Shown here piece after piece: positions 2,726 to 53,917 of a stretch of 55,781 nucleotides of DNA; the first letter of the stretch is position 1; each line of letters begins with the position of its first letter. The position numbers and the translations under genes were made by a program. The notes under the pieces were generated by a model. It had not been told where the DNA came from, did not search any database, and saw nothing but the letters and a program-made list of their open reading frames with translations. Source of the DNA: a virus (lineage: Duplodnaviria; Caudoviricetes); IMG/VR virus record IMGVR_UViG_3300037847_002600, positions 1 through 55,781 of that record. One strand, given 5' to 3'.

Positions 2726-2904
2726 CGGGGTATGTGGTCCCTGTCGGTCGTGCTTTGCGTCGCCACGGTGGCGGTGCGGGGCGCGGCTGACACGGGGCGC
2801 GTGCGCAATAGCGCGTATGCGAACCCCGTTTAATCCTTGCGCGTGTACGTTGTGTGCGTGCGCAAACCGTGGAGCGCACGAGACCCGTGCGCGTGGAGGT
2901 AGCG

Positions 2905-3692: not shown

Positions 3693-3942
3693 AGACCTCG
3701 TACGGAAACACGTGGACGAAGACCTCGTATGGGTGATCGTGATTACATGCGTGCCCATGCTGATAGGCTGTGTGGCTATCAAGCACGGAACACGCAGCGT
3801 CGCGCAACAACATGCGTACACGTGGGAGACATGCGCTCCCCTGTGCGTGATAGACGGACTGCAATACGAGCCTAGGCGGTTCGAGTCTGGTGAATGCTGG
3901 TGCGATATGCAGCGCGTTCGTATGGGGGTGACCGATGGGTGA
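3685..3942 (+). CDS. Small Cys-rich membrane protein
   Basis: ATG after GGAGGTG; hydrophobic LVWVIVITCVPMLIGCVAI followed by CxxxC...CxC. Confidence 0.6.
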   Translation: MLRDLVRKHVDEDLVWVIVITCVPMLIGCVAIKHGTRSVAQQHAYTWETCAPLCVIDGLQYEPRRFESGECWCDMQRVRMGVTDG

Positions 3943-4033
3943 GCTACTGTTCACAGGTTGGGACCTGTTCTTTTACACGTGCGCCATGTTCGCGCTCTAC
4001 GTCGGGTTCATGCTCGCAGGGGGTGACGCATGA
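3935..4033 (+). CDS. Micro membrane peptide (32 aa, not in ORF track)
   Basis: MGELLFTGWDLFFYTCAMFALYVGFMLAGGDA; GGGGGTGA RBS; exactly bridges its two neighbours. Confidence 0.55.
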   Translation: MGELLFTGWDLFFYTCAMFALYVGFMLAGGDA

Positions 4034-37353: not shown

Positions 37354-38481
37354 TTAAGGTGTGCCTGCGCCGGTGACGACGAAGTTAGAACGAAGTTGCG
37401 TACAGTGCATGCCCATCATGAGCACCAACTCGTAGCGGTAAATGTCCTGATCCGGAATACGGAACGGACCGCGAACTGCGAAGTCGCCCTTGGTCTCACG
37501 GCTTGCGTCGTGTCCGAGGGTGAAGAGGTGCCATGTCGGGGTCTTGAACCCGTAGATGATACCGTCAGCGCCATTGCCCTGTGCAGTGTTGCCTGTGGTG
37601 TTACCACCAACAGTGTACGCAGCAGACGCAATGTCAATCGCATCGTCGAGGAAGAAGTCGGCTTCCAAGAACTTGACGCCTTGACGAACCAGAGGCGGTG
37701 CCTTGTCGCCTTCAACCTTGACCACGCGGACTTGATCGTCCAAGTCGTCGATGTAGTTGAGGTACGAGGACTCATCACCGATCATCAAGTCAACAGGACC
37801 GGAGGTCTTGCCCTGACGTGAAGCAGCGAAGTAAGCCTTACGCATTTGGCTACGACCGTTGACAGCAAACGAAGAGATGTCCTCGTACTGGTTACCCCAG
37901 CCTGTGATAGCAGCAGCACCGCCACCGTTACAGAGCAGGTTGTGAACCGTGTTGTCTTGATCGGCGAGTGCCAAAGCGGACAGGAAGCCGTCACGGGTAG
38001 TACCGTCGGGCGAGAAGGAACGGTTACCGTTCAGGGTGCAGAATGCCTCGACACCGTCGCCGGTGATTGCCGAGTCGCCTGTACCAAGCTGACGGGAGAT
38101 CCGCTCGTGGAAGTCGGACAGAGCCAACTCTGGGTAGTGCTGAAGGATACGAGCGAGGTCCATCTCGCCGTTTGCTTCTGCAAGGTCTTTGCCGGGAACG
38201 TCAAACGCGTAGATGAGGCGAGGTGCTACGACCTTACCACGGTGTGCGTTTTGTGAACGACCGCCTGCGATGATCTCGGTGCCCGTCTGGACGTGGGTAA
38301 TCGTACCCGGTCCGTCTGTAACAACCGCGAACTCGCGCTCAGGCCCTTTGAGGCTTGCGCTGTCAAGGTTACCGTTAATCAAGATCTTTTCCATAAGAGG
38401 ATGGAACTTGACGAACAACTCACTGTACGACGGCATCAACTCATTGAGTGCAGTCGCCAGAACGTCTGGTGAAATGGCCAT
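37354..38481 (-). CDS. Major capsid protein
   Basis: 375 aa after the scaffold; strong AGGAGG RBS; composition and position typical of an HK97-fold MCP. Confidence 0.8.
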   Translation of the reverse strand: MAISPDVLATALNELMPSYSELFVKFHPLMEKILINGNLDSASLKGPEREFAVVTDGPGTITHVQTGTEIIAGGRSQNAHRGKVVAPRLIYAFDVPGKDLAEANGEMDLARILQHYPELALSDFHERISRQLGTGDSAITGDGVEAFCTLNGNRSFSPDGTTRDGFLSALALADQDNTVHNLLCNGGGAAAITGWGNQYEDISSFAVNGRSQMRKAYFAASRQGKTSGPVDLMIGDESSYLNYIDDLDDQVRVVKVEGDKAPPLVRQGVKFLEADFFLDDAIDIASAAYTVGGNTTGNTAQGNGADGIIYGFKTPTWHLFTLGHDASRETKGDFAVRGPFRIPDQDIYRYELVLMMGMHCTQLRSNFVVTGAGTP

Positions 38482-39350
38482 TAGGCCCTCCTAGTTTTCT
38501 TAGGTGTTAGTGCTCTACGCGCTGCTAAAGTACGAAAATCACGCAGCGACATTGCTCCCGTATCCGGAGCAAGCGGAGCCTGCTCTGGTGGACGAGCTGG
38601 GGTCGTCGCCCCTGCCGTAATCTGCGCCCCCGGACGAGGCTTTGCGGGTCGGCTCTTCGCCCCCTCAGCAAGACGAAGCGCGTAGGTTTCTGGAACCCCG
38701 TTTGACTTCGCCTCACGTGCTACTGCGAGAGCCGACTTAGGCAGGCGCGAGGCTACCGCTGCCGACTCCACAGACCAACCGTCTTCAAGCAACGCCGTAA
38801 AACGCTCTTTGAGTTCCCCATCCTCAAAGAGTTGAGGGTTGGCTTCCCTGAACGCGTTAGCGTACTGGTTGGCTTCATCCTCGATTGCTTGATTTACTAT
38901 CTTCTGATAATCTTTGTACTCGGTTTGCAGGGCGTTGAACTCCTGCTCACGAGTATTGTACTTGGTTTCCCAGTCAGCTATCTCTGTCTGGTACTTAGCC
39001 AAGCGGGGGTCTTCTTTGCCCCCCATGAGAGCTTCGTAGATCTCTTTGTTACGGTCGAGATCGTTGTTTAGCTCTTCCATCTTCTTACTGTAAAACGAGC
39101 CGATACGCTCGCCCCATGGCTGAAGTTGATCCGGAAACGACTCGTGTTTACCGTCCCATGTGTCCCAGCCGAACTCATCCGCAGAGGGAAAAGAGACGGG
39201 GGCCTCGGCTTCTGGCTGAGGATCTGGTTCGGCAGTTAGGGAGGACTCCACCTCGACAGACGCATCCGCTGCGGGCGCGGCCTCTACAGGCGCGGCTTCC
39301 ACAGTTTCAACGGTCTCAGGGGCCCCCGCCTCAAGAGCTTCTTCACTCAT
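38481..39350 (-). CDS. Scaffolding protein
   Basis: Acidic disordered N-terminus, coiled coil and basic C-terminal tail; immediately upstream of the MCP. Confidence 0.75.
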   Translation of the reverse strand: MSEEALEAGAPETVETVEAAPVEAAPAADASVEVESSLTAEPDPQPEAEAPVSFPSADEFGWDTWDGKHESFPDQLQPWGERIGSFYSKKMEELNNDLDRNKEIYEALMGGKEDPRLAKYQTEIADWETKYNTREQEFNALQTEYKDYQKIVNQAIEDEANQYANAFREANPQLFEDGELKERFTALLEDGWSVESAAVASRLPKSALAVAREAKSNGVPETYALRLAEGAKSRPAKPRPGAQITAGATTPARPPEQAPLAPDTGAMSLRDFRTLAARRALTPKKTRRA

Positions 39351-39690
39351 CTTCACTCTCCCTTTTCTTTTTGTCATCGGCCAAGGCGAACTTTGCTACC
39401 TTGATCCGCATCTTGCCCCGTCCTTTAGGGCTCAAATCGTTGCCTTCGGTCATAGGGGGCGGCAACATCCCCATAAGCTCGTCCATCTCGCCCATCGCTT
39501 CGGTGGCTTCAGCCTCGTCCATCTCTTCGACCGCACCGTCCACAGGTCCCATGTCTTCTGGAGCTTCGTCCATCATAGGCTCTTTCATCACAAGGTCATA
39601 CCCTGTAGTGTCGAGGATGGCACGTAACTCCATCTCGGTCTGAGGTGGGTTGTCTTGCAGTTGAGTCAATAGGTCATTCATGGCAGGCAT
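39343..39690 (-). CDS. Acidic Met-rich hypothetical protein
   Basis: AAGGAGG RBS; basic C-terminal RIKVAKFAL segment. Confidence 0.7.
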   Translation of the reverse strand: MPAMNDLLTQLQDNPPQTEMELRAILDTTGYDLVMKEPMMDEAPEDMGPVDGAVEEMDEAEATEAMGEMDELMGMLPPPMTEGNDLSPKGRGKMRIKVAKFALADDKKKRESEDE

Positions 39691-39708
39691 AAGGGCCTCC
39701 TTACAAGC

Positions 39709-39737
39709 TGATTAGTAAACATAAATATTCTTGTCAA
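39709..39737 (-). promoter_or_regulatory. Putative promoter for scaffold/capsid genes
   Basis: TTGACA-N17-TAATCA in a local AT-rich patch. Confidence 0.4.
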
Positions 39738-40128
39738 GTTTACCAGACTGTTTAGCTTTCTCTTTCTTACGCCGTTTCTTCTTATCTTCGAGGTCACGGT
39801 AGCCCATGCGGCGCGCTGTGGCCTCGGCCTTCTCGGCAGCGGCGTCCCTATGCTTCCTCCAAGCTGCGGAATCAGCCGATAGGATTTCGCAGTCTGGATT
39901 CTTGCGTTGGTACTCACGCCAGTCGGACCCGTTTTCAAATGTCTTGCCGACTTGCTTAACGACTAGAGGTTTTGAAGGCATGGGCCCGATGAGGGCGACC
40001 TCGCTGATGACCGTTTCCAGCTTCGCATTACACTCCGGGCACGTTGTCTTGCCGTGCTGTGCGAGCGGTACAAAGATGTCATTGAAGTACCCGCATCCGG
40101 CGGGGCACCTGAAATCATACATAGGCAT
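39712..40128 (-). CDS. FmdB-like zinc-ribbon protein with basic extension
   Basis: MPMYDFRCPAGCG...CPECN.KL..VIS. Confidence 0.8.
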   Translation of the reverse strand: MPMYDFRCPAGCGYFNDIFVPLAQHGKTTCPECNAKLETVISEVALIGPMPSKPLVVKQVGKTFENGSDWREYQRKNPDCEILSADSAAWRKHRDAAAEKAEATARRMGYRDLEDKKKRRKKEKAKQSGKLDKNIYVY

Positions 40129-40262
40129 CAGTACTTTCCCTTTTTCTTGCGCTTCGTCATGTTGATCCCTTGAGCAACAGCTTGCTTGCGCGGTTTGCCC
40201 TCCTTAAGGAGCTTCTTGATCTTGTCGCTAACACGTTCGTCTGATGACTTGTACTTAGCCAT
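40128..40262 (-). CDS. Small basic protein (44 aa, not in ORF track)
   Basis: MAKYKSSDERVSDKIKKLLKEGKPRKQAVAQGINMTKRKKKGKY; I..L..EG.P.KQAVA pattern recalled from phage head regions; TAATG/TGATG coupling. Confidence 0.7.
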   Translation of the reverse strand: MAKYKSSDERVSDKIKKLLKEGKPRKQAVAQGINMTKRKKKGKY

Positions 40263-40357
40263 TACTTCTCCTTACCCTTCTTCTTGCGGACCAAGGGGAC
40301 CACAAGACGAAGGACAGAGCCTACAATATCAAGAATCTTCTTAACAGGAACACGCAT
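40262..40357 (-). CDS. Cationic amphipathic micro-peptide (31 aa)
   Basis: MRVPVKKILDIVGSVLRLVVPLVRKKKGKEK fills the gap exactly; weak RBS. Confidence 0.45.
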   Translation of the reverse strand: MRVPVKKILDIVGSVLRLVVPLVRKKKGKEK

Positions 40358-40361
40358 CTTC

Positions 40362-40856
40362 TTAGCGGCCACCTTTGCCTTCGCCTCCGCCGCCGCCTGT
40401 TCCGACGGGCGTTTTTGGATCTCGGTCAGTTCCACCACCGCGTGGGCCACGAGCCTGCTTGAACTTCGGGTCTGTGTCCTGACCGCCAGCGAAAGGAGGT
40501 GCTCCTTCTCCCTTCTTAGAGCGAAACTCCTTCTTAGTGTCTGCCGTACCTTTAGATGGGGCCTTCCCGGACCGCTCAGAACCCTCTGCTGTACCACCGG
40601 CTGCGGGGCGTTGGCTCTTGGGCGCAGGTTGATCTGTACCAAAGGCCCTGTCTTCCGCTCTGGCCTTAAGCACGGCGGCCTTCTCGGCTCCGACCCTTTG
40701 TTCGATGCGACGAATAAGCGCCTTTGTCTTAGGGTGTTCAATACCATGCTCTTCAAGACTCAAGACAAGAGCTTTTACGTCTTCTTCGTCCATTGTATCG
40801 GATGCTACGTTGTTGACGTTAGGCATCTCAGTAGCACGTTCTATCATTCCGTTCAT
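40362..40856 (-). CDS. Hypothetical protein with G/K-rich disordered tail
   Basis: AGGAG RBS after the portal gene. Confidence 0.6.
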   Translation of the reverse strand: MNGMIERATEMPNVNNVASDTMDEEDVKALVLSLEEHGIEHPKTKALIRRIEQRVGAEKAAVLKARAEDRAFGTDQPAPKSQRPAAGGTAEGSERSGKAPSKGTADTKKEFRSKKGEGAPPFAGGQDTDPKFKQARGPRGGGTDRDPKTPVGTGGGGGEGKGGR

Positions 40857-40865
40857 AATCGACTC

Positions 40866-42680
40866 CTAAATAAATGGGTTGCCCGGTCCGCCCATGGGCG
40901 TGGGGACAGGTGATGGTTCTGTACCTGCGGGCAATGCGCCCGAGTTGAGTGTATCAAGGTTAGCGTTAGGGGGCAAAGGTCCCCCCATTCCGGGCATAGG
41001 CGGCATACCGGGCATACCGGGCATACCGGGCATACCCGGTTGAGGCGGCATGGCCGGTGGTGCCGTCGGTCCTTTCTGAACGGCAAGGACTTCGCGCATC
41101 TGTAGCAGGTCAAGCAGCTTCGTCAGTAGCTTCTCTTGGTCTACAACGGGAGATTGTAGGAGCAACGGCATATACTGCTGAAGTTTCTGGAGCTGCACAA
41201 GGCGATGGTTCTCCGTAGGTGAGTACGGAATAGCCTCGTAGTCATACTCAAGGGCTCGGTCTTCAGGGTCGCGCTCGCTAACGAACTGAAGCGAATCACG
41301 TGTCGCCGTCAGAACTTTTTGGCTGTCGGTCAGACGGATGGGCAAAAGAGAGTCCTCTGCAAGGAACTCTTCGTACAGAGATACGACCTTATCGGCCATG
41401 TCCCGTAGCATATCTTCAACCTGCTTTATTCGTCGTCCGTTTCTTGTTCGGGTCGCAGTGTCGGCAAGCGCGACCTCCGTAGCAACGTCCGCCACACCCA
41501 CAACCCCCCGACTATACTGAGGGATGCCGAGGATAAACTCAATGACCTGATTACATCTTGCGCGCATCTCCTTAAAAGATGGCGTGATGGATGGGATGGG
41601 TGTCTGTCCAATGATGTCTCCGAGAGGCGCGTTGGCCTTACCCTGAATCGCCACCATGGAGCCCGGTTGGTTCGCATCTGCGAGGGAGGTCATGATGTCT
41701 TCGGGGTTATCAACCAACGCTGTGTTGACAAGCATGACAGGCGTCGAAGTGTGTGCGTGCCATAGCTCAAGGGTATCAATCTCGTTCAGACGCTCTTGCA
41801 GGGACTGGATAAGCTTAATGTCCGACAGGCCCGCTAGGTTTGCCATGTTCTCGTTGAACGACAACAACGTAAACGGGTTTTTGGCGTAGCGGTATGGAAG
41901 CTCGCCAGCAAACAGGGGCTCCTCTACGTCCTCAAGGAAGTGGTAGTAGCGGCCCTTGCCCTGAAAGTCATACACCTCGTAGACCGTGACCCACTTGTAC
42001 ACGCTGCGCGAGGCCTCGTTAAGCATCGTCGAGTTCTTAGCGTTGTCCTTCAGCCATGTCGGAAAGCCTGTAAAGGTGGCCTTCTCAGCGACCTTTTCGT
42101 TGTACATCGTACCCCGACCTTGCTTCTTGGCTCGGCGTGTTTTGAACTCTGCCTCGGTCAGGACCGTCACCTCTACAAGGTAGCGAATGTCGTCCCACTT
42201 GGCAGCGGACATATCGAAGAACACGTAACGAGGGTCTACCTCGAAGATCTCAGCCGAACCCTTACGGAAGTTCCACACTGTCTTCGTGAAGGCTCTGCCG
42301 CAGATGGACGTGTTGATCGCGGTCTTCCACAGCTTTGCATGTAGCTTGTTACGGCGGAACACGTCGTTGATCAAAGCTTCGCGGAACTGTGCAGCAGGCC
42401 GCATCTTCTCTTGACGTGCAAGCACTGTCATCTGAGGGTTCTGCGGACAGATGTTGGCGATCATCGTGTCGATGAAAGCGTAGGGGTAGTTGGTCTCGAA
42501 GTTGATGTCCGCAGTAGGGTCATCCGCAATCGGGGTCGAACCTGACGGTTGGTCGGGCTGTGCTCCCCAGTACTCGGACACGTACCACGCACGCCACCGG
42601 TCCCAGTCACGTCTCTCTTGCTTAGACTTCGACTTGTGGGTTCTGATGATCCCCTGTATCTGTTTGCCTGTAAGTGCCAC
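40866..42680 (-). CDS. Portal protein (P22-like)
   Basis: 604 aa helical; VDP..VFFD, V.VYEVYD, NPF..L.F..GLSD, ATEV; PGM-repeat tail; position between TerL and scaffold. Confidence 0.85.
   Translation of the reverse strand: MALTGKQIQGIIRTHKSKSKQERRDWDRWRAWYVSEYWGAQPDQPSGSTPIADDPTADINFETNYPYAFIDTMIANICPQNPQMTVLARQEKMRPAAQFREALINDVFRRNKLHAKLWKTAINTSICGRAFTKTVWNFRKGSAEIFEVDPRYVFFDMSAAKWDDIRYLVEVTVLTEAEFKTRRAKKQGRGTMYNEKVAEKATFTGFPTWLKDNAKNSTMLNEASRSVYKWVTVYEVYDFQGKGRYYHFLEDVEEPLFAGELPYRYAKNPFTLLSFNENMANLAGLSDIKLIQSLQERLNEIDTLELWHAHTSTPVMLVNTALVDNPEDIMTSLADANQPGSMVAIQGKANAPLGDIIGQTPIPSITPSFKEMRARCNQVIEFILGIPQYSRGVVGVADVATEVALADTATRTRNGRRIKQVEDMLRDMADKVVSLYEEFLAEDSLLPIRLTDSQKVLTATRDSLQFVSERDPEDRALEYDYEAIPYSPTENHRLVQLQKLQQYMPLLLQSPVVDQEKLLTKLLDLLQMREVLAVQKGPTAPPAMPPQPGMPGMPGMPGMPPMPGMGGPLPPNANLDTLNSGALPAGTEPSPVPTPMGGPGNPFI
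41002..41036. repeat. Coding tandem repeat (GGCATACCG) x ~3.9
   Basis: Encodes PGM repeats in the portal tail. Confidence 0.85.
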
Positions 42681-42688
42681 GCGTCCTC

Positions 42689-44332
42689 CTAGTTAGCCCC
42701 GGCTTTTTTCTTTACTGCGTCTTGTACAAGTAGCACGTCCGCCAAGATCTGCATCGCTAGATCAGGCGTCAAGATCTGCGTACCCTCAATACCTGTCGGT
42801 ATGATACGTGCCAGTCCGATGGGACCTCCTTCCTCTTCGCCGAGCATGGCGACGATAAGAGGTTCAACGTCACGCGTGTAGTCTTTCTTGGCAAGGTCCA
42901 TGATAATAGCACGGTACAGGTCCGTCGGATTCACGTAGCCAGTGGCGGTTTCCTCACCTAGAGGGCTGCGCTCGGGCTGGGCAACGTAGTCAGGTCGTCT
43001 CTCTACAGGGGTAAACAACAACGGATCATTCGCGTCTAGCGGGCGGCGAGCCGTGCGGGCCATGTTAGGGAGCTGCTCTAGTGGGGTACCAAATAGTTGT
43101 CGTAACATCTGTCGAATGGCTACATTTGAGGCCTCAGTCGTAGCAAGAAGCGTTTCGGCGGGTGGCGACACAGCAGCCATGTTAAATACGCCCTGCCTAA
43201 TAGCTGCAAGCTTGGCCGCACGGGGCAACGCATAGAACGATTTGACTCCTGCCTCTACAGCGCCGGGAACCGATGCGATGCCAGAGGCTAGGGCCGAGCC
43301 GCCTCGAACCACAGCACCCGGCGCACCAAACAGCGCGTTCTTTAGTGTTGATGGAGCGTTACGAATCATCTCTTTAGCGCGACGAATAGCGGAAGCGGTC
43401 ACACTGTAGTTCAGGTCGTCTAGCGCAAACACCGGGCTGAGAGGGTCAACGCCCTCGTTAAGCGCCTTACGTGCAATAACACGAGCTATAACCGTACGCT
43501 CTACAGGTGCCAGCGTTTCGTCCACCGATTGGATCATAGCCTCAAGCGCCCGTACGCGATCGGCATCGTCCGAGGACAAATCAAACAGTAACATACTGCC
43601 CTTACTGCCGGGTTGCAGCCGTGGACCTGTCTCTGGAGGAAAGTCTTTTAGTCGTGCCTGCGCATTCTCTTTGGCTTGCGCTAGAATACGGGCCTCTTCG
43701 TTAAGGTCGTCCATCGTTAGAGTGTTAACGAGTTCAGCAAACTGATGCTGTTGACGGGTACGTGGCGCGGGGCCTTCGAGCAACTTCTGCCCTTGAGCGT
43801 TGACCTGAGCGTCGGGCAGGTCCATGTTGACGCGAGGACCGTCTATCTGGCTAGCCGCTCGGACACTCGGCACACGCTTCAGGGCCTCCTGCGCGATCAT
43901 CGTCTTGGTGCCGGGGCCTTCAGGTGTTGTGGCGTCAGTCCCGACGCGAGGCGGACGCTCTTCACCGGCCTTGGCGGCGTCCGCAGCAGCGTCAGCGGTA
44001 CCCTCTTGAGAGCGATCTGCTTGTTGTCTGCGGAGTTGTTCTTGCTCAGACAGATCAGCAGGGCCACCGATAACTGCGCCTCGTGGGGTCGCTGTGGTCG
44101 TCAGATAGTCATACAGGATGTTGCGTGGGATGTCGCCCTCGGGGACGCGTGCAGTCAGCCGTGTCGGCGCACGTTCGCGGCGAGGTTTCCCTACGTCCGC
44201 GCCAAGAGCTTCTAGGTACGAGCTAATGTCCTCGTAAGGGTAATCCACCCCTTCGACTTCAATCGGAGCAGCCTCCGGGCGTCGCTGTTGCTGGAGCATA
44301 TTGATACGGTCGGCTAGGCGTGTACGTCTCAC
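42689..44332 (-). CDS. Hypothetical protein (547 aa)
   Basis: GTG after GAGGAG; long Ala/Pro-rich ORF between TerL and portal. Confidence 0.7.
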   Translation of the reverse strand: MRRTRLADRINMLQQQRRPEAAPIEVEGVDYPYEDISSYLEALGADVGKPRRERAPTRLTARVPEGDIPRNILYDYLTTTATPRGAVIGGPADLSEQEQLRRQQADRSQEGTADAAADAAKAGEERPPRVGTDATTPEGPGTKTMIAQEALKRVPSVRAASQIDGPRVNMDLPDAQVNAQGQKLLEGPAPRTRQQHQFAELVNTLTMDDLNEEARILAQAKENAQARLKDFPPETGPRLQPGSKGSMLLFDLSSDDADRVRALEAMIQSVDETLAPVERTVIARVIARKALNEGVDPLSPVFALDDLNYSVTASAIRRAKEMIRNAPSTLKNALFGAPGAVVRGGSALASGIASVPGAVEAGVKSFYALPRAAKLAAIRQGVFNMAAVSPPAETLLATTEASNVAIRQMLRQLFGTPLEQLPNMARTARRPLDANDPLLFTPVERRPDYVAQPERSPLGEETATGYVNPTDLYRAIIMDLAKKDYTRDVEPLIVAMLGEEEGGPIGLARIIPTGIEGTQILTPDLAMQILADVLLVQDAVKKKAGAN

Positions 44333-44481
44333 TGGCCCTCCTCGGTCGTCTTCTTGAACTCAACAACATCGTCGTCAGGCTTCTCAAACGACGCATCGTA
44401 TTCGCTATCAAGCCGTTCTTTAAGTTCGCGTAAGACACGATGGACGTTGGACATAGGATTATATTTGGGGTCTTCTGCCAT
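44329..44481 (-). CDS. Small acidic protein (50 aa, not in ORF track)
   Basis: MAEDPKYNPMSNVHRVLRELKERLDSEYDASFEKPDDDVVEFKKTTEEGQ; AGGAGG RBS; TAATG coupling. Confidence 0.65.
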   Translation of the reverse strand: MAEDPKYNPMSNVHRVLRELKERLDSEYDASFEKPDDDVVEFKKTTEEGQ

Positions 44482-46187
44482 TATCGCCTCCTGTAACGGC
44501 TCCTACGCCATGATGCACGCTTACGATTCTTACCCTTGGTAGAGTCTTTTCGGTACTTCTCAACTTGATTGTATGTCATGTCCTTAAACAATAACACATT
44601 CTCAAGACCTTCGGGGGGTCCTGTGGTCTTGTAACGCCTCGGAGCGTACCTCGCCCCTAAACATGCAAGCTGAAGTGCGGATATTTTATCCCAGTGGTGT
44701 CGATCTCGTCGTTTACCGGGCTTGCCTGAGTGTAATATCTCAGACGCTGCGCTGCGTTCTGTCTGCTTGTCCTCTCGGTAGGAGCCCAGTTGGTCTACAG
44801 TGTCCTCGTCTCGGAGGATAAGCTCGTCGCGTAAGGCGTCTTGTAGATATGAAAGCATGATTGAGATGGACTTAGCGGTGGCTGCGACACCGGGCTTGTA
44901 GGCTTTTTCGTAGTAGAGATTTGGGTAGCCAGCATCTTCAAGCAAAGCCAGAGTAGCCACACCGACGCCGTTACTCTCAACGACCACCATTGCGTTGTTG
45001 TATTTAGATCCGACCTCGAAGATCTTACGCGCAAAGACAACCGGGTCCGTGGTGTCTCCAAAGGCCGCAACTTGGGTCCATTCTCCATCGTACACCTTCA
45101 ACACTTGGAATGACGCGTGGTCTCTCGCAGCATAACCCGCAGGGTCAACGCCCATCACATACGTCGCCCCGGCTTCGGGCTCCTCGTACTCCATGTACGG
45201 AGCCTTCCATGGGACAAGCACGCTGTTCTGATGCTTACGTAGTAGGTCGGCGTGGAACACAGAGCCCACAGATGAGATCCAACAACTCACATCATCAAAC
45301 GGATAGTACACCTTGAAAAGGTCGGGGTTACGCCGGATCTCAGCATCTGTCTCTAGCATGAGCCTGCGGAATGCGAGGTTCTCTTTCGTTAGCCCCTTGG
45401 GTCCGTAGCGGTTAAGGAGATCTATCTCCTCATTCTCTAGCGCCAACCCCTTCGGCCACTGACGTTTGTTGAGCTGACCATCCCAGAAAGGAAAAAACGC
45501 GTAGACCCAGCGACCAAGTCCCATCTTGGCATCGCGACACTGGTCACGCCACCATTCGGCGGAAGGCTCACTCATGGGCGAAGGCGTAGACTCTAGCAAC
45601 ACAAGTGATCGATCGCGGTTGATCATTGAGGGGTAGATCATAGAGAACTGATGACCTGCGTTACGCCAGTAAGGGAGTTCTGAGCCATGGAAGCTGTCCG
45701 GTGATTGACCAATACCTACTGCACCAGATTCTCCAGACAGCACGCGCATCTTCCCGCCGTGCTGAAAAGTCAACTGCCTTACCTCGCGGTTCGGTACCGT
45801 CGGTGCCCGGACAGGTTCTGGCCACCTGCTATGCGTTAAGTGGATACGACGGTGGAGGTATTCTGCCCGATCTCGATTATCAGCAATACAAACATGGTCG
45901 TGTCCGGGTGTGTATGCAGAACGGACATACCCACACAGTTCAGCGGTTAGGCTCTTCCCGCCCTGTCGATAACCAAGGACAGTCAACCACTTGGTCTGTC
46001 CAAACGGAGTTTCTGGTGGTTCGGAGTAGTACGAAACCACCGTCTCCTGAAGACGCTTCGTGATGGCAAACGGGTCGTAGGTGTGTTCCCGCCCTGTCTT
46101 CTGGTCGATAATACTGGCGTATGCCCTGAGGCTAATCGCAGGGTCTCCGAGCGCAGCCAACGCCTCTTCGTCGAGCGATGCGGTCAT
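44481..46187 (-). CDS. terL: Terminase large subunit
   Basis: YRQGGKS Walker A, FHGSE Walker B, LESTP, nuclease GVDPAG..D, VESNGVG and HWD. Confidence 0.9.
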   Translation of the reverse strand: MTASLDEEALAALGDPAISLRAYASIIDQKTGREHTYDPFAITKRLQETVVSYYSEPPETPFGQTKWLTVLGYRQGGKSLTAELCGYVRSAYTPGHDHVCIADNRDRAEYLHRRIHLTHSRWPEPVRAPTVPNREVRQLTFQHGGKMRVLSGESGAVGIGQSPDSFHGSELPYWRNAGHQFSMIYPSMINRDRSLVLLESTPSPMSEPSAEWWRDQCRDAKMGLGRWVYAFFPFWDGQLNKRQWPKGLALENEEIDLLNRYGPKGLTKENLAFRRLMLETDAEIRRNPDLFKVYYPFDDVSCWISSVGSVFHADLLRKHQNSVLVPWKAPYMEYEEPEAGATYVMGVDPAGYAARDHASFQVLKVYDGEWTQVAAFGDTTDPVVFARKIFEVGSKYNNAMVVVESNGVGVATLALLEDAGYPNLYYEKAYKPGVAATAKSISIMLSYLQDALRDELILRDEDTVDQLGSYREDKQTERSAASEILHSGKPGKRRDRHHWDKISALQLACLGARYAPRRYKTTGPPEGLENVLLFKDMTYNQVEKYRKDSTKGKNRKRASWRRSRYRRR

Positions 46188-46480
46188 TACTTCATACTCT
46201 TCTTGCCCTTGCACTTCCAACGCTTGCGCGACAGGTTGTTGGGCGTGTTAGGGTCATTCTGTTTCTCTTTCGAAAGGCGGCTCTTGATACCTGCCGAGCG
46301 AGCGCAGTAGGAGTCGCCCTTAGACGTACCGGGCCTGACACGAGGTCCGCCACCTTTCGCCTGCCCTGCTTGGCCGTAAGACACCTTCTTACCAGACGCG
46401 GTGCGCTTGACACGTGCCTTGCCCTTACGGGGCTTAAGTGCGTTACGTGCGGCCTTACGTCGTTTATCTTTAAGGGACAT
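46187..46480 (-). CDS. Small basic protein (DUF6321-like)
   Basis: KKVSYGQ...SYCARS...DPN.PN..SR.RWKC pattern. Confidence 0.7.
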   Translation of the reverse strand: MSLKDKRRKAARNALKPRKGKARVKRTASGKKVSYGQAGQAKGGGPRVRPGTSKGDSYCARSAGIKSRLSKEKQNDPNTPNNLSRKRWKCKGKKSMK

Positions 46481-49400
46481 CAGTTCTCCCTCGGAGGCTC
46501 TTCCTCTTTGTTCATAGCACGGCGAGCGGCTTCGCCTGCCATCATCGCAAACGGCAAGGCGTAGAGAGCAGATGGACCACCTCGGCCTGACAGGCTACCG
46601 TCAAAAGACTCAGCGTTAGGCGTTTCCTCTACAATGCCAGCGGTCAGGGCGGAACCTTCGGCGTTCATTTTAACACGTATCATGTCTTTAATCTCTTTCG
46701 TTAAGGGGATAATCTTAATATGACCGTCTTTGAGAGGCTCCCCCTGTACAGTAGCTTGTACGACAGGGAAGTCTGATACCTCTGCGTTTAAGATTTTCGC
46801 AAAGATGCTAGGGAGGAAGGTATCATACGAGGCCCTCACGCCCTTTGAGTTACCAAACTGGATGCCTATAGACGTTAAGATCGTTTCAGCGTTTGGCAGC
46901 GCGATAAAATCGAGGTCCGCAAGATACGCCTGACGTAACATATCATTTGCAATAAGACGTAACCGCTGGTTGACTGAAGTCATAACTGGAATCTGCGAAA
47001 CTTGATCTACGTGCGCATCGGTATTTTCAAACCATGAAAGGAACGCCCTAGGTGACGAGAGCGTACTCACACTCTTCTTCCCAGTCTGTGGATCTACAGG
47101 CACCGAGCCAGTATCATACTTAAAGAAATGCTTAAAGGTAGGAGGAAGTCGGTCGCTACTGACGTACTCACTGCTGGGCGTGAGTCCGTCGTAAAGAACA
47201 GAAAACTGTTCGGGTGGCCGACGAGCGGCCAGTTCATCGACTATACGCGTAACAATCTTCTCGGCCACTGTAGGTGATCGTGCGTCGAGCCTGTCGGCAG
47301 TACCGTAGATTATACTGGCTCCTAGCTCCTTAATCATTGCCTCCTGCTGCTTGTAATCTCTGAAGTTTTCCCTGATCGGTGCCGTTAGCTTTGCAAGCTC
47401 GTGGACTAGGTTAAGCGTCCGTTTAGAGATCCCCAGTCTTTCTAATCCTTCTAGTCGCCAGCTAATCTGCTCAAGATTAGGCTTTTTCCTAGCATACTCG
47501 GCTGCTAATGAGTAAGCATAGTTGGTCAACTTCTGCGTAGCATCTCTGCGCCTGAAGTCGGTCATCTCCGGGTTGGTGAATATATCATACGCTAGACTCT
47601 CTCGAAGCTCCGTGGCCAGAGGGTTAAGTTTTGTCTCTACATCCGCAAAGCGACGCAACGCCCTGTACAGCTTCGTGTCCGTCGTGGGTCCTCCTATCGC
47701 TCCCAAGTCGGCTACTCGCTGATTTATGTCAAACTGTTGTTCGATTAAAACTATGCCCTTGCCTTCAACTGGTGAGTTTTCGATCGGTCCGATGGTAAAC
47801 CTAGCGTGACCGAGGAAGTCATTAGCGGCAAAACCACCGGGTTTAGGGATATAACTCTCGCGACCAAAATGCGAGCTTGAAAAGTCACCCCACGGTGATT
47901 GTCCGCCGAGGCCTGACGGTCCTGACGTAAACGCATAAAACACCTCGCTGGCCTTGTCCAGCATGTCTTGCATCGGTTTGATCGCTTCAGGTGTAGAGTA
48001 ATCATCAAGCGTAGTGTTCACGATGTGCCGTATCTCTTCCTTACTATAAGGAAATACCAAATCTTCGATGCCGGTAGCGCGGGTAACAGGACGTCCTTTG
48101 ACTTTGTAGTTATTCAGACCAACAACCAGATCGTTCGTCATCTTGTGATGTATAGTATGAAGACTACTAAGATTCTCCACAATCGCATCTACCGCCTCTT
48201 TCGATGCGTAGGGTCTATCCAGCCTAGTATTTGTGGCCTCTCTGAAGAGGTCCGATATTTCCTTACCGACGTAGTTTCTTACTGCTTGCTGAGATCTTAA
48301 ACCTCGATGTGTTACTTGGGGTGTTTTCCAGAAATCTTGCATACTCTGCCAAGCATTTCGGGCCAACGCTAGTCGATCTGTTGTCGGTATGTAGTATAGG
48401 CGGGTACCTGTTGCGTCTTGGTTATTAAGCTGATCTACTTCAGGAACATACTTGTTGTAGCTGTGACTGTCGCCATGCACGTTGTCCAACGCGAACTTAG
48501 CACCTTTGTACTCTCCAGCTCCGATGAGCTGCCGCGTTTTATTACTTTGCATATGGTCATTCGTAGTGCCCGGTCCGTAGTAATCGAGAAGCGTCGTGGT
48601 CGCTATTACATTGTTATCTACGACTTGGTCTCCAATAACAGAAGGTAGGTACCCAGAGGACTGTTGTAGAGCACTCAGAACGTTTCGGGCTCTGAAACCG
48701 TCAGGATGCAGGCGCTCGACGTACTGAAGCGCAGGTTCTAATCGGGTACGTATTTCATCTTCGCTGACAAGGACACCTTTACCTTTGCTAGACAATGGTA
48801 GGAACTTTTGCTGGTCTTTATCAAACGCGAACCCCAGAGCTTTGAGGAACTGGTATCTCGCAGACGTACCGGGCTTCACCAAAGGCACAACTTCACCGTC
48901 AATCACACGTGTGCGCTGTTCACCTGTCTTCCTGTCGATCACAGGCATGTCTTCGGTCGTCGCAAATACACGCTCTGGATGTTTAGTGTTCAGCACATTC
49001 AGGGCCCTTTGGAGACGTGAGTACGTAGGAGGCTCGTCTACGTCCGATACGTTTAGGGCACGGGACGCCCCTTCAAGAAGTGCTCGTTCGGCAGCGTCGT
49101 ACCCTTGCACGACCACGGGAGGGCGCGGAGCAAGCGTCTCCACCTTGCTGCCCCAGTTTATAAGGTCGCTCACGGAAGGCTTGTCAGCGTCACTCAGCTT
49201 AAGGTTGTGCGTACGGTAATAATGGATAAGACCTGTTAGGAGATCACGCGAACGCTTCATCCTCGCTGCGTCGTCGGACGCGTTGAGGCCTGCGAAGATA
49301 GCTGGACCGAAGTTTTCAGGGTCGAACACAAACTTAGACATGTCCGGTAGCGAACGCGTCAATGAGTCGATAACGGTCTTCTTCTGGGCTGTATTGTGCA

Positions 49401-52332
49401 GGGGAAGCTGTACGTATTTAGAGTGCCAAGGTGTGTCTTCACCCGCCCCAAAGGGCGTCCAGTTCAGGTAATGCATTTTCGCGAGGTAGGGCTGGCCTGT
49501 TTTACTCGGTATGTCTAACACTTCCATAATCTCAGCGACCCGTGCGTCCGAAAAAACAGCAGCAGGATCATCGTGAGAAGCACGGCTGCTGATAGGAAGC
49601 GCGTAACTCGGCGTGCCTGCGTGGGTTAGGTCCGACTTCCCTTCCACGTTAAACGCGGCGCGACGCGTGTCTGCTTGACTCTGCTTAACAGCATACTTAA
49701 AGTAGCCCTGTAGTTCGGCTATGTCCGCAGGGGCACCGTTTTTGTCTGTCGTATAGCCGTTTGAGAGCCGCTTGAGACCTTCCAAAAATGACGCCGGAAC
49801 TTCTGCCGTATTCGTTGCGGTAAGCATAGGATCGCGGTCGATGATAGGATTAGAGCTGGTTGATGTTAGTCGTTTGCGGACTGATTCATTAGCGACCCGA
49901 CCTAAGCGAGTGTCAGAACCAAACAAAAGTTGTCCTGCATTCCTGCCGAGTTCATCACGGGTCATAGGTGCCGAGCCCGAGTTGTAGTTCAAGGCATATT
50001 TAAGTTCTTGAAAATCGAGGTTTCCTTGGTTCAGTGACTTGGGCAGGCGGTACAAAGGAAAACCCGTGAACTTCTCAAACGACTGGATAGCGTCTGTAAC
50101 GTCCCAAGCAGCGTCTTTACCAGCGGTTCGTGTTGTCTCAAAAACACGATCAAATAGTCTAGCTGCCCTGTTGCGGTATGCCGCGAAAGGCTCCTTTAGA
50201 ATGTCCTCTTGTACAAGTGGAGCCGCGAGAGGGGCATCTGGGTTCACAATCCTTGTATTTGTTGGGCCACCCGAGCCTAAAAACCGTTTGAGTATAGTGA
50301 GCTTCTCGCGGAGGGGTGCGGGAGACTCATGTAAAGCGGACATTACAGCAGCAGGAGCAAAGTCTTCTGCTCCACGGAGAACTTCATCTATCGCCTGTGC
50401 CACTATAGGTTGGTTTACGGCTGCTACCGTATCTTCCGTTGTGCCTCCTTCACTGGTAAAACGCGCCCGTATACCCGCATCTATGCCTAGGTCATCTAAC
50501 ATAGGGGCACTTAAAAAATGCAGCATGTCTGCGTTATGACTAAAAACAGGTTCGCCTGTTTGGTAATGATTAGCTACACGGATCATGGCAGACCCAAGGG
50601 CCCTCTGGTAGTCTGTGACAGCCGAAGTACTATCTTGAGTCTCTGTCAGGCCCGACAGTCGTTGAAAAGTGTTTATCGCGTCTTGCGGTGCAGACGTGCC
50701 GTCCGGGCCGGTGGATGCAGCTAGAAACGCTTCACGTTCCGCATCTGAGTACTCAAGTCTGCCACTCATCATAGGACGAATGGGTTCAACGACCTCTTCG
50801 ACCCCGTCATCTGCGAGAACCTCTTCTAGTCTAGTACCGGCAGGAGACGCATCGGGATCAACCGCATCCTCGTCTAAAGCAGCGTTTATCCGCTGTGTAA
50901 GTTCCTCTGAAAACGCGTCAATGACAGCGGCTTCGCCTATATCTCCAGAGAGTGTGTCAGGGTCAACTGAACTCTCAACCTCGGGACGAACTTCGCTAGG
51001 TGGGAGGCCGGTTTGAACCTCTGTGCGTTGCTCGGGGGTGAGTGAGTCAAGCCACGCTATCACAGTCGGATCGTTTGCGTGCTGTGCCAGTAAGTCGTCA
51101 GCCATGCTGTTAATAAACTGATTAGGGACCTCAGGTCGCTCTTGTGGATCAGGCGTCCGAGTCAGAGGCTGCGTGACCTCATCGTACATGTCCGTGGGCT
51201 CATCGGCTTCGGGCTCTGCACTAGCAGGACGTATACCACGATTAATAGCACGACTGACATCAAGCGTCCGCCGTGTCGCTGCGCTCGGCAGTCGGGACGG
51301 TGTAGTAAGCGTAGTAGGCGTAGTAGGCGTAGTAGACGTATCGGGGGGCGCTGTCGGAGCGTCCGGTGCAGGCTGGGGGGTTACGTCGGCCATGTCGCCG
51401 TAAGGCATACGACGACGCGGCGTGGTGCCCTCCATGAGGATCTCAGTACCATCATCTGTAAAACGATCAGGATGTAGCCGACGATAAACAGCGTCATCGA
51501 ATCTACGAGTAGCGTCCCCTACACGCTCTAGACCTGTGCGTACTCCCGAACTAAAACGCTGGCCTTGATCGCTACGAGCAAAGCGCCCTAGGCCCCGGAT
51601 GGCGGCTTTGGATGCGACTTCGCCTACGCCTTGTCCGATCGCCTCTGCTGCCGCAAAGGCCATAGGGTTCATCGTGTCGAGTGCCGTCTTCAGCTCATCT
51701 CTGTCTAGCTCGCCCCGTTGTGCTTGCCGTGCGAGTCCCTGCATCATAGCTGCTTGTTGCTCGGTCATCAGCCCTGATGCGAACGCCTGTCCTAGAACAC
51801 GTTGTGCTGTCTCTTGATTAGCAAGCATCTCGCCGAACTCGTCAACAGACATCGACCTTTCGCCGTACATCTCGCCGGGTCGAGCTTCTCGAACTGATGG
51901 TCCGTCGGGCATAGGCGGTAGGGGTTCTGCTGGTTGCTGTGCCAGCTTGGCCATGTACTCCGCCGCCGCATCTTCCGGTGTCGTTTGATACTGCGACATG
52001 TCCGGTTGCGTAATGCGGTCAGCGGCCCGCTGCGTCTCAGCTTGGAGTGCTTGGTGTCGGTCACTACCGGAGTACTTGGCTCTGCCCAACATCTTGATAG
52101 GATCGTAGTCCCCACGCACGGCACGCCGCATGGCGTCACCGAAGAACGTATTCTTGATCCCGTCGCCCGGTTCGTAGTCTCCCGACCGCTCTCGCTTGGC
52201 AAGCTCATCGAGTATCCGACGTTGTGGTGTACCGTACAGGTACGACTCCCACGCGTCACTCGCTTTGTTAGCGGCTGCGTCAAGAGGGCGGTTAAGTGCG
52301 GATAAGACGCTTTTGGGGTCCTTCGGATCCAT
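46480..52332 (-). CDS. Giant 1950-aa protein, probably head-packaged/polyvalent-type
   Basis: Long ORF with an acidic Pro-rich N-terminal third; C-terminal SHF..LGHARF..IEQQFD..LR.A....D.IA..YD..LP..K block recalled from large phage virion proteins. Confidence 0.65.
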   Translation of the reverse strand: MDPKDPKSVLSALNRPLDAAANKASDAWESYLYGTPQRRILDELAKRERSGDYEPGDGIKNTFFGDAMRRAVRGDYDPIKMLGRAKYSGSDRHQALQAETQRAADRITQPDMSQYQTTPEDAAAEYMAKLAQQPAEPLPPMPDGPSVREARPGEMYGERSMSVDEFGEMLANQETAQRVLGQAFASGLMTEQQAAMMQGLARQAQRGELDRDELKTALDTMNPMAFAAAEAIGQGVGEVASKAAIRGLGRFARSDQGQRFSSGVRTGLERVGDATRRFDDAVYRRLHPDRFTDDGTEILMEGTTPRRRMPYGDMADVTPQPAPDAPTAPPDTSTTPTTPTTLTTPSRLPSAATRRTLDVSRAINRGIRPASAEPEADEPTDMYDEVTQPLTRTPDPQERPEVPNQFINSMADDLLAQHANDPTVIAWLDSLTPEQRTEVQTGLPPSEVRPEVESSVDPDTLSGDIGEAAVIDAFSEELTQRINAALDEDAVDPDASPAGTRLEEVLADDGVEEVVEPIRPMMSGRLEYSDAEREAFLAASTGPDGTSAPQDAINTFQRLSGLTETQDSTSAVTDYQRALGSAMIRVANHYQTGEPVFSHNADMLHFLSAPMLDDLGIDAGIRARFTSEGGTTEDTVAAVNQPIVAQAIDEVLRGAEDFAPAAVMSALHESPAPLREKLTILKRFLGSGGPTNTRIVNPDAPLAAPLVQEDILKEPFAAYRNRAARLFDRVFETTRTAGKDAAWDVTDAIQSFEKFTGFPLYRLPKSLNQGNLDFQELKYALNYNSGSAPMTRDELGRNAGQLLFGSDTRLGRVANESVRKRLTSTSSNPIIDRDPMLTATNTAEVPASFLEGLKRLSNGYTTDKNGAPADIAELQGYFKYAVKQSQADTRRAAFNVEGKSDLTHAGTPSYALPISSRASHDDPAAVFSDARVAEIMEVLDIPSKTGQPYLAKMHYLNWTPFGAGEDTPWHSKYVQLPLHNTAQKKTVIDSLTRSLPDMSKFVFDPENFGPAIFAGLNASDDAARMKRSRDLLTGLIHYYRTHNLKLSDADKPSVSDLINWGSKVETLAPRPPVVVQGYDAAERALLEGASRALNVSDVDEPPTYSRLQRALNVLNTKHPERVFATTEDMPVIDRKTGEQRTRVIDGEVVPLVKPGTSARYQFLKALGFAFDKDQQKFLPLSSKGKGVLVSEDEIRTRLEPALQYVERLHPDGFRARNVLSALQQSSGYLPSVIGDQVVDNNVIATTTLLDYYGPGTTNDHMQSNKTRQLIGAGEYKGAKFALDNVHGDSHSYNKYVPEVDQLNNQDATGTRLYYIPTTDRLALARNAWQSMQDFWKTPQVTHRGLRSQQAVRNYVGKEISDLFREATNTRLDRPYASKEAVDAIVENLSSLHTIHHKMTNDLVVGLNNYKVKGRPVTRATGIEDLVFPYSKEEIRHIVNTTLDDYSTPEAIKPMQDMLDKASEVFYAFTSGPSGLGGQSPWGDFSSSHFGRESYIPKPGGFAANDFLGHARFTIGPIENSPVEGKGIVLIEQQFDINQRVADLGAIGGPTTDTKLYRALRRFADVETKLNPLATELRESLAYDIFTNPEMTDFRRRDATQKLTNYAYSLAAEYARKKPNLEQISWRLEGLERLGISKRTLNLVHELAKLTAPIRENFRDYKQQEAMIKELGASIIYGTADRLDARSPTVAEKIVTRIVDELAARRPPEQFSVLYDGLTPSSEYVSSDRLPPTFKHFFKYDTGSVPVDPQTGKKSVSTLSSPRAFLSWFENTDAHVDQVSQIPVMTSVNQRLRLIANDMLRQAYLADLDFIALPNAETILTSIGIQFGNSKGVRASYDTFLPSIFAKILNAEVSDFPVVQATVQGEPLKDGHIKIIPLTKEIKDMIRVKMNAEGSALTAGIVEETPNAESFDGSLSGRGGPSALYALPFAMMAGEAARRAMNKEEEPPREN

Positions 52333-52334
52333 GA

Positions 52335-52739
52335 CTACCCCCCGTAAGGATTATCAATAGACTTCTTATTTTTCCTAGAGGGAGGCGGTTGGTCGGGTGT
52401 GACTAGCGAACCGTCGGGCATGACAGGATCAGGGAACTCGTAAGGTTCGTCGGGCGGTACGTCTAAGATCTGAGGCTGCGTTGCTTGGTACTCCATCTCT
52501 GCGCGACGCCGGTCTGCTTGATATGCTTCTTCCTCTTCCGGGGAACGCATATCCATGTACTCTTGAGGAGCAGTAGGTGCGGGCATACCCTCAAGGAGCC
52601 CGTCGGCAATGTCCCCGCCAGCAGCACGCAAGGCTTCAATAGCGCGGCGGGCCGCATCACGTAAAGCTTGAAGGTTCTGTGGGCCACGGCTTGTGTCACG
52701 GTTATCGGCGAGGGTATCAAATGCTCTTTCGTCAGCCAT
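52335..52739 (-). CDS. Acidic Pro-rich hypothetical protein
   Basis: GGAGG RBS; coupled overlap; contains AARRAI. Confidence 0.65.
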   Translation of the reverse strand: MADERAFDTLADNRDTSRGPQNLQALRDAARRAIEALRAAGGDIADGLLEGMPAPTAPQEYMDMRSPEEEEAYQADRRRAEMEYQATQPQILDVPPDEPYEFPDPVMPDGSLVTPDQPPPSRKNKKSIDNPYGG

Positions 52740-53154
52740 TCTTGGCCTCCAGTACTACAGGTTCGGACTGCTCAATCTCTTCGGCGGTGAAGTAGTCACC
52801 ACGGAGCTGTTTGGTCTCTCGTTTCACTTGAACAAGTGCGGTAACTATATCCGTATATGCATCTTGCGGACTTCCTTCAACCGAGTTCTTAGTTGCTAGG
52901 ATAGTAAAGTTGAGTTCATGCCATGCCCGTAGCTCCTGTGCGATAACAGGTGTGATGCGCCCCTCGACCAGTGCGGCCATGATTTTACTGCTGAAACCTA
53001 CCAGATCGTCATACGTATCAATCTGAGCTTGGGCTACAAAGTCTGCGACCTCCTTACGTTTGTCCTTCGGGACCAACATCAACCAAGATGCGTAGTCCCC
53101 ACCAGCACTTGCGGGAGGTCTACGTGCGGGACTTGAGTTCTTCTTCTTTGACAT
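52732..53154 (-). CDS. Hypothetical protein (terminase small subunit candidate)
   Basis: Helical 140 aa upstream of the packaging genes; TerS assignment is positional only. Confidence 0.4.
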   Translation of the reverse strand: MSKKKNSSPARRPPASAGGDYASWLMLVPKDKRKEVADFVAQAQIDTYDDLVGFSSKIMAALVEGRITPVIAQELRAWHELNFTILATKNSVEGSPQDAYTDIVTALVQVKRETKQLRGDYFTAEEIEQSEPVVLEAKNG

Positions 53155-53917
53155 CTACAGCCTCTTTGGTTCGATGGACACGACAGCCCGGTGATATGCG
53201 GAGCTTCTTAGGTGTGCCTTTGATTAGATAAGGTAGGTACGCAGGATGTTCTAGCATCTGTTTGCAATATAACGTGTCTGCCAGAAAAGGATTAGACATA
53301 AGCGCCGCAAGGAACTTGCCGCGAGGACGTGTCGGCATCTTCCGTATGAATGGCGGTAGCATCGCTTTACGGAAGTCCGTAGCCGTCGCCCATAAGACGT
53401 ACTGTGGTATCTTCTGCCACTCGGACACAGCGAACGCCATGGCACGATACACTTCGTCCTCGGTGAGGTCGGTGCCCTTGGCTATCTGGATAGGCGTTAG
53501 CCCCATGCCGTAGAGCAGGACGACTAGGTGTGCCATGAACAACCTGTGAGGTGTCGTGTACTTATAGCACATGTTGACGTTGGTTATCTGAAACGGACTA
53601 GGTATCAGTCGATGACGGAACGCAGGTAGTACTTCGTCGGGCCAACGTGTGGGGGACACGAGGCACTTGTCAGACAGCACCCACTCATGCAGCACAGGAG
53701 TCGCTCTGATCCACCTACGGACGTTTTGATTGGACCGGGCGGTAACCTGTGGGTCCCAGTCGAGTGCACGGCCCCTGATGGCTTTCAGGCTCGCTACAAA
53801 CACACCCCATCGCTGACGCTGCATACGCCGCTCCGTCAAGATGGTACGGAGCGCGAGCATATGTGGGTCATGCCTACGGTGCTTGGCGTTTACTTGGAAC
53901 CTGCGGATCTCAGGCAT
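53120..53917 (-). CDS. Basic protein with sigma-region-4-like HTH
   Basis: VVLLYGMGLTPIQIAKGTDLTEDEVYRAMAFA. Confidence 0.55.
   Translation of the reverse strand: MPEIRRFQVNAKHRRHDPHMLALRTILTERRMQRQRWGVFVASLKAIRGRALDWDPQVTARSNQNVRRWIRATPVLHEWVLSDKCLVSPTRWPDEVLPAFRHRLIPSPFQITNVNMCYKYTTPHRLFMAHLVVLLYGMGLTPIQIAKGTDLTEDEVYRAMAFAVSEWQKIPQYVLWATATDFRKAMLPPFIRKMPTRPRGKFLAALMSNPFLADTLYCKQMLEHPAYLPYLIKGTPKKLRISPGCRVHRTKEAVDVKEEELKSRT

Follow-up and report, generated by a model that had tools for sequence, protein, structure and literature searches.

The window analysed here, the whole 55,781-base stretch of IMG/VR record IMGVR_UViG_3300037847_002600, contains a tailed-phage head module, and the element in question is the C-terminal tail of its scaffolding protein, a short predicted helix that recurs at the termini of other head-module proteins. 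The record was rated complete by CheckV and its ends were classed as linear; minus-strand genes occupy it from ~16.9 kb to the right end. In the order of transcription, the head module comprises o265, o140, o134, a giant protein of 1950 amino acids (aa), o97, TerL, the open reading frame (ORF) 42689-44332, the portal, o164, o138, o115, the scaffold and the capsid protein (Table 1). A first-pass annotation had interpreted the recurring peptide as a signal that loads a set of proteins into the capsid, and every peptide that it named was located at its position on the minus strand.

Table 1. Head-module features of the window, in the order of transcription
Feature	Position	Strand	Description
o265	53120-53917	-	head-module gene
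o140	52732-53154	-	head-module gene
o134	52335-52739	-	core AARRAI at 52638-52655 (residues 29-34), within LRDAARRAI at 52638-52664
1950-aa giant	46480-52332	-	variable-island gene
Giant, C-terminal tail	46483-46563	-	YALPFAMMAGEAARRAMNKEEEPPREN; core AARRAM at 46513-46530, within EAARRAM at 46513-46533
o97	46187-46480	-	small, very basic protein of 97 aa; ATG overlaps the stop of the giant, 3' end overlaps the TTG-called start of TerL
o97, N-terminal tag	46424-46480	-	MSLKDKRRKAARNALKPRK; 22.6 bits against the tail profile
TerL	44481-46220	-	PHROG match, E 2.6e-17
Internal IARKAL of ORF 42689-44332 (547 aa)	43460-43477	-	residue 286; 2.7 bits
Portal	40866-42680	-	PHROG match, E 2.1e-15
o138	39712-40128	-	head-module gene; zinc-ribbon protein
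o115	39343-39690	-	core acidic protein just upstream of the scaffold gene; tail RIKVAKFAL
o115, tail RIKVAKFAL	39382-39408	-	core VAKFAL at 39382-39399, then a charged end
Scaffolding protein	38481-39377	-	directly upstream of the capsid gene; predicted fold; weak fold matches
Scaffold tail	38496-38552	-	MSLRDFRTLAARRALTPKK; core AARRAL at 38508-38525, then TRRA and the stop codon
Major capsid protein	37354-38481	-	presumed docking partner; weak PHROG major-head-protein match, E 0.002

The scaffold was modelled using AlphaFold2 (predicted local distance difference test [pLDDT] 76), and in the model a disordered acidic N-terminus leads into a long helical hairpin, after which a disordered linker connects to a C-terminal helix (residues 269-281). 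Fold searching returned weak matches to proteins named scaffolding protein (E 0.04-0.9), and a Pfam scan of the scaffold gave no family. Because the scaffolds of relatives begin with MSEE..EAG, translation probably starts from the ATG at 39350 rather than at 39377, giving a product of 289 aa. Relatives were collected by scanning IMG/VR with the capsid protein, which yielded 80 loci (L001-L080) with 57-96% capsid identity, and a second scan of IMG/VR, seeded by the most distant locus, added 14 new, mostly short contigs of the same family. The tail motif [MT]S[LF]x[DE]xRxx[VA]ARxAL followed by a basic end was found in all 80 of the 80 scaffold homologs, and the tail is also kept in 14 further contigs; outside the tail, the identity of the scaffold homologs drops to 32-50%. 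In the structural model the tail is a 13-residue helix that follows the disordered linker and ends in TPKKTRRA. We read the last ~20 residues of the scaffold, a predicted amphipathic helix that has two conserved basic residues and finishes with a basic end, as a putative procapsid-docking peptide, because the coat-binding C-termini of other scaffolds are analogous.

Comparison of the scaffold tail with the N-terminus of o97 revealed identity at 12 of 19 residues and at 31 of 57 bases. The first-pass annotation had described this match as one made with different codons, which was confirmed, as only 4 of the 12 identical residues share a codon, the initiator ATG included. Because the codons differ, the likeness appears to be held at the protein level, and a recent DNA duplication was rejected as the origin of the o97 tag. 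A profile hidden Markov model (HMM) built from 38 unique 18-residue scaffold tails of the relatives was then scanned against the 59 ORFs of the window. The scaffold itself scored 31.2 bits and the o97 N-terminus 22.6 bits (E 1.7e-7), the latter remaining at 22.3 bits once window-like tails had been removed from the profile, and every window protein besides these two scored at most 6.2 bits. Judged by profile score, the window has just one further copy of the scaffold tail that is statistically secure, the o97 tag. Moreover, the AlphaFold2 model of o97 (pLDDT 68.9) places the tag in a separate predicted helix at residues 3-14, apart from the body of the protein.

The o97 gene is present in 7 of the 36 loci that include TerL, and its tag is kept in 5 of these 7 homologs. 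The wider o97 family comprises at least 1855 clusters at 90% identity, most of whose members are 84 aa long, tagless and start directly with MAKPRKGK. Among the 120 best o97 matches, ~14 carry a scaffold-like extension and 5 carry MSNKRGIDNPYG instead, so that one body is found with the scaffold-like tag, with another N-terminal peptide, or without either. The body of the window protein (46187-46423) is very basic, 84 aa long and contains two conserved cysteines; it occurs in unrelated marine phages, with 50-70% identity in Roseobacter phage CRP-7, in Vibrio phages and in cyanomyovirus S-TIM5. The capsid of CRP-7 is a different one; there the o97 homolog carries no tag, the motif is missing from the scaffold tail, and the core was found in 0 of 36 proteins. 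Locus L002 differs from the window in having two extra small basic ORFs (63 and 74 aa; L002:769-1181, +) between the giant and o97. The label DUF6321-like, which had been given to o97, was not supported: the protein had no Pfam match up to E 10 (cut-off of PF19846, 28.5 bits), PF19846 gave 0 matches when searched against the whole record, and the Pfam annotation is empty for all 120 listed o97 homologs. The sole link to DUF6321 was an Atlas lead (0.88) pointing to a cluster with this domain in 12% of its members. A fold search of the o97 body against the PDB found no match (best E 4.7).

The tail of o115 was evaluated by profile-profile comparison. The o115 slot is almost always occupied: it contains an ORF in 79 of the 80 loci, and 23 of 49 unique versions have the strict core in their last 30 aa. 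The o115 and scaffold tails aligned over 28 columns with P 9e-6, and the reversed control gave 0.35. This result suggested that the o115 tail is a diverged copy of the scaffold helix. The giant has a much narrower distribution, with two homolog clusters only among 5.8 billion proteins and an occurrence in 1 of the 80 loci (L002, a close relative of the window). Its homolog P0122 has only 43% identity to it over the last 500 aa, yet the final ~27 residues are nearly the same, as they are in the L002 fragment. To judge from these alignments, the giant clearly ends in a terminal peptide under constraint, of which only AARRAM resembles the scaffold tail. No PHROG family was found for the giant, and Pfam gave only TMP_3 at E 0.55. 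A second giant ORF of 2065 aa (21045-27242, -) lies in the tail module of the window.

The copies on the giant and on o134 consist of the six-residue core only, and no homolog of o134 was found in the 80 loci. ORF 42689-44332 was found in three of the 80 loci. Its copy lies inside the protein, and an 84%-identical homolog reads IARKAA in its place; it is therefore probably a chance match that lies outside the system. The profile scores of o134, ORF 42689-44332 and the giant fall within the noise range of other window proteins, and the weaker window copies would gain meaning only from the family-wide pattern described below. The recurrence listed in the first-pass annotation, and its expected conservation in homologs, thus held in part: the o97 copy is secure and kept in most in-family homologs, and the tails of the giant and o115 are conserved, but the copies other than that of o97 are individually non-significant and that of ORF 42689-44332 was lost. 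The third-best tail-profile score in the window (6.2 bits) belongs to ORF 3298-3954 (-), a frame of 218 codons rich in His, Pro, Arg and Cys. It was set aside as a tag carrier because its composition looks non-coding, and it shows that the ORF lists used here include spurious frames.

Among the relatives, the order o265, o140, TerL, portal, o138, o115, scaffold and capsid is fixed. Hypervariable islands of orphan genes occupy three fixed insertion points (o140/TerL, TerL/portal and portal/o138), and island size ranges from ~50 bases to more than 4 kb among close relatives. To this pan-proteome (978 unique plus-strand ORFs of the 80 loci, 238,787 residues) the tail profile was applied, and 21 non-scaffold matches of at least 3.7 bits were obtained, compared with 0 in the reversed sequences (best 3.4 bits) and a mean of 1.5 (maximum 4) in 20 shuffles. 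At 6 bits or more, 14 matches were observed against a shuffle mean of 0.45, and at 8 bits or more the 20 shuffles gave 0.05 matches on average. In addition, the core was written as the regular expression [VIAS]A[RK]xA[LMI] and scanned over 216,459 residues from which scaffold and o115 were excluded. It occurred 55 times in the forward and 13 times in the reversed sequences, and 39 of the 55 forward occurrences, where 25% would be expected, lay within 30 aa of a terminus (reversed, 7 of 13). The spacing is stereotyped: the core either lies ~10-16 residues from the start Met or ends one residue short of the stop codon. The 39 terminal cores fall into 21 sequence families, one of which is apparently a spurious ORF, and the tagged proteins are unrelated, range from 40 to 1950 aa and are highly variable among close relatives.

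The terminal core was also strongly confined by position. It was carried by 37 of 431 proteins encoded upstream of the capsid gene and by 2 of 440 encoded at or downstream of it (Fisher p 5e-10). Across six complete genomes (the window and G001-G005), it was found in 20 of 81 ORFs from o265 to the scaffold, as against 1 of 347 elsewhere (p 8e-15), the lone outside case being the C-terminus of a 2396-aa tail-module giant in G005. The enrichment in head-module genes that had been anticipated was thereby borne out, and rather than being equally frequent in non-virion proteins the motif was nearly absent outside the TerL/portal islands. One sublineage (L064-L067 and G004) has four tagged island proteins per genome, and the others have none to two. 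By these statistics the family-wide terminal tag pattern is real and lies beyond chance.

A second terminal motif, NK[RK][GS]IDNPYG, was observed in the same setting. The C-terminus of o134 carries NKKSIDNPYGG (IDNPYGG at 52338-52358, -), and the motif is likewise C-terminal in a 390-aa protein of L060 (L060:96-1268). It is N-terminal in an o97 homolog (L031:2525-2815) and in two L033 proteins (2474-3226 and 3230-3490), and lies near the N-terminus of L024:1915-2499. Three proteins, namely o134, L033:2474-3226 and L024:1915-2499, bear the two motifs at opposite ends, and on the o97 body the IDNPYG motif and the scaffold-like helix are alternatives. A DNA-level recombination site behind IDNPYG was not favoured, as the instances differ at synonymous positions. 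The exchange of IDNPYG for the helix would be the behaviour expected of interchangeable address peptides. In CRP-7, the gene immediately preceding that of the scaffold encodes the small protein gp57 (L098:18983-19243, -), which contains GKDNPYL ~12 residues before the C-terminal end; this sequence resembles IDNPYG, and the resemblance could be a coincidence. Pfam and PHROG searches with 9 tagged or IDNPYG-bearing island proteins of the relatives gave no family.

Binding of o97 to the capsid protein was assessed by complex prediction, which gave a score of 0.45 (individual runs 0.50, 0.42 and 0.45), whereas the highest-scoring of the three controls reached 0.00; the tool rated the result as 'weak support'. 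The partner had a pLDDT of 64 or more, and 67% or more of the contacts were consistent between runs. When the tool was calibrated, the mark was attained by 58 of 80 solved complexes, as compared with 2 of 110 mismatched pairs, and those reaching it at a score of 0.60 or less comprised only 7 of the 80 solved complexes and both of the passing mismatches. The tool describes a verdict of 'weak support' as wrong in the majority of cases, except where the guess was likely beforehand.

Several other features of the record and its relatives were noted. Same-strand ORFs at 2-694 (-) and 53910-55781 (-) run off opposite ends of the record; were the genome circularly permuted, they might belong to a single gene. 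TerL was called from a TTG at 46220, which overlaps o97; an ATG in the same frame (MTASLDEE) is found 11 codons further on. Among 50,697 phage records, no cultured phage gave a match to the capsid or the portal protein; the best cultured match to TerL was that of CRP-7, with 27% identity. Neither the capsid protein nor the scaffold had a meaningful sequence relative among solved structures.

We propose that the recurring helix is a scaffold-mimic address tag for capsid loading, which we regard as the best available, though unproven, explanation and to which we give about an even chance of being correct. Under this proposal, the terminal helix of the scaffold would dock the scaffold to the procapsid, and copies of the helix at the extreme N- or C-terminus of other head-module proteins would recruit these proteins to the same place. 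Such copies would be clear on o97, diverged on o115 and reduced to a minimal six-residue core on the giant and o134, and in related phages they would sit on ~20 further unrelated accessory families in the three variable islands. During procapsid assembly, the tagged proteins would take up part of the sites that the scaffold tail uses on the inside of the capsid and would thereby be enclosed as low-copy cargo, which later could reach the next host with the DNA. Three steps of this scheme are inferences: the capsid protein would be the binding partner of the scaffold tail, the tags would dock at that very site, and the tagged proteins would enter virions and be ejected.

A number of results weigh against capsid loading by such a tag. 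The capsid protein and the scaffold were themselves assigned from gene position, weak profile matches and predicted folds. The complex prediction returned no interface, and therefore the tag was not identified as the contact. Covariation between the tag and the scaffold tail of its own genome, which the first-pass annotation had put forward as a check, was weak, each tag being only slightly more similar to that tail than to the tails of other genomes (mean percentile 0.63, n=19, related sequences being non-independent). At the level of single proteins, 2 of the 7 in-family o97 homologs are without the tag, the window copy of o115 alone gave no match to the tail profile, and the giant and o134 scored 1.4 and 2.9 bits, respectively. 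Scaffold and o115 aside, each of the six complete genomes has 0-4 tagged proteins, and many 'untagged' homologs bear looser versions of the helix, so that the motif boundary is soft. Furthermore, the regular expression was picked after the list of the first-pass annotation and is circular for the window, where its six matches are the six of that list; the contrast between upstream and downstream proteins in the relatives is independent of this choice. A hold-out of the 14 new contigs pointed in the same direction (2 of 57 vs. 0 of 86) but was underpowered (p 0.16).

Some of these results would also be expected if the recurrences other than that on o97 were generic Ala/Arg-rich amphipathic helices with no common function, and the o97 tag an old recombination relic of the scaffold 3' end. 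The 0-3 bits scored by the window copies on the giant, o134, o115 and ORF 42689-44332, the low complexity of a six-residue core captured by a post hoc expression, the non-significant hold-out and the weak covariation all suit this account. Nevertheless, we consider it distinctly unlikely, given that reversed and shuffled controls contained far fewer matches, that most cores are terminal, that they are confined to the head-module islands in both comparisons, and that CRP-7 lacks the core altogether. In addition, the tail of the giant is far more constrained than its body, and the codons of o97 and the scaffold have diverged with the peptide kept.

All of the sequence statistics fit equally well a true shared docking motif that binds another partner, such as the portal, the terminase, the scaffold body, o115 or a host chaperone or protease, and serves another head-assembly or regulatory step. 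The clustering of the tagged genes around TerL and the portal and the lack of an interface in the complex prediction are in keeping with such a partner, and the three proteins with IDNPYG at the opposite end suggest adaptors with two partners. On the other hand, the motif ends the scaffold after a disordered linker, which is the position of the coat-binding element of 80alpha as described in PMC5644958, and the capsid protein with o97 outscored its controls, at the 'weak support' level; we hold a different partner to be rather unlikely. Alternatively, the tagged proteins could be scaffold-tail mimics that modulate assembly, through capsid size, scaffold occupancy or timing, or interference with co-infecting relatives, instead of being cargo. 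The one structurally proven natural scaffold-tail mimic, CpmB, is described as competing for the site on the capsid protein (PMC5644958), and o115, a core gene adjoining the scaffold gene, has a scaffold-like tail. However, tagged proteins that are numerous, unrelated, variable and of 40-1950 aa would fit dispensable cargo better, and they are encoded by the phage and not by a satellite; we hold a modulating role to be very improbable.

Returning to the address tag, several known systems offer a comparison. According to PMC5644958, the scaffold of 80alpha and CpmB of SaPI1 have a common C-terminal helix-and-hook that binds the capsid protein. The window resembles that pair, as described there, in having an amphipathic helix with a short basic end at the scaffold terminus that is repeated on a second, otherwise different protein (here o97 and o115). 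Unlike CpmB, which belongs to a satellite and redirects capsid size, the copies here are in the phage genome, on ~20 unrelated families and at either terminus. The tail has no sequence likeness to the RIIK motif, and binding here is putative. In T4, the capsid targeting sequence (CTS) of IPIII is a short terminal peptide that sends unrelated proteins into the prohead, from which they are later injected, and it is transferable (as cited in PMC9024508). The T4 CTS is N-terminal, whereas in this family tags are found at N- and C-termini alike and are similar to the tail of the scaffold itself. The CTS binds the scaffolding core and is removed by the prohead protease. No prohead protease family turned up in Pfam and PHROG scans of 17 of the 59 window proteins.

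The 250-kDa DarB protein of P1, whose gene adjoins that of the portal, provides a further parallel, since its first 30 residues were reported to target a reporter to the capsid (PMC9024508). The 1950-aa giant of the window likewise belongs to a head module, and one of its termini is a conserved peptide; this peptide is C-terminal, whereas the DarB signal is N-terminal. The account in PMC9024508 reports no consensus for the Dar N-termini, whereas a consensus is common here to the scaffold and many proteins. In engineered P22 virus-like particles, cargo fused to the coat-binding part of the scaffold is encapsidated, as outlined in PMC9962691; those fusions are artificial, and the proposed tag would be their counterpart in nature, one that is mobile in evolution. 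The locus studied here is a tailed-phage head module with TerL and portal. Encapsulins, whose diverse cargo is directed into an HK97-fold shell by short terminal peptides, work without scaffold, portal or DNA packaging. Literature searching brought up the T4 and P1 signals, CpmB and the P22 fusions, and no natural multi-protein scaffold-tail tag was found among the results, an absence that is not proof. The tag described here would differ from the 80alpha/CpmB, T4 and P1 elements in that it is phage-encoded, resembles the scaffold's own tail and is placed at either terminus of many unrelated, rapidly exchanged proteins.

A broader version of the address-tag proposal includes both motifs: a small code of terminal peptides, made up of the scaffold-helix copy and NK[RK][GS]IDNPYG, would load an exchangeable set of proteins into the capsid, with the two-motif proteins acting as adaptors. 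We regard this version as possible but lean against it. If such a code were true, sequence would directly reveal which proteins uncultivated phages inject.

Phage proteins that are packaged in the capsid and enter the host are known for a few model phages and normally cannot be predicted from sequence. If the scaffold-like helix is an address tag, packaged or injected proteins would become predictable across a whole family of uncultivated marine phages, and the hypervariable islands of orphan genes inside a conserved head module would be explained. The tag would also constitute a natural minimal signal of ~15 residues, usable at either terminus, for loading phage capsids. Moreover, scaffold-tail mimicry, which is known from one satellite protein (CpmB), would then also be a general cargo address used by the phages themselves.

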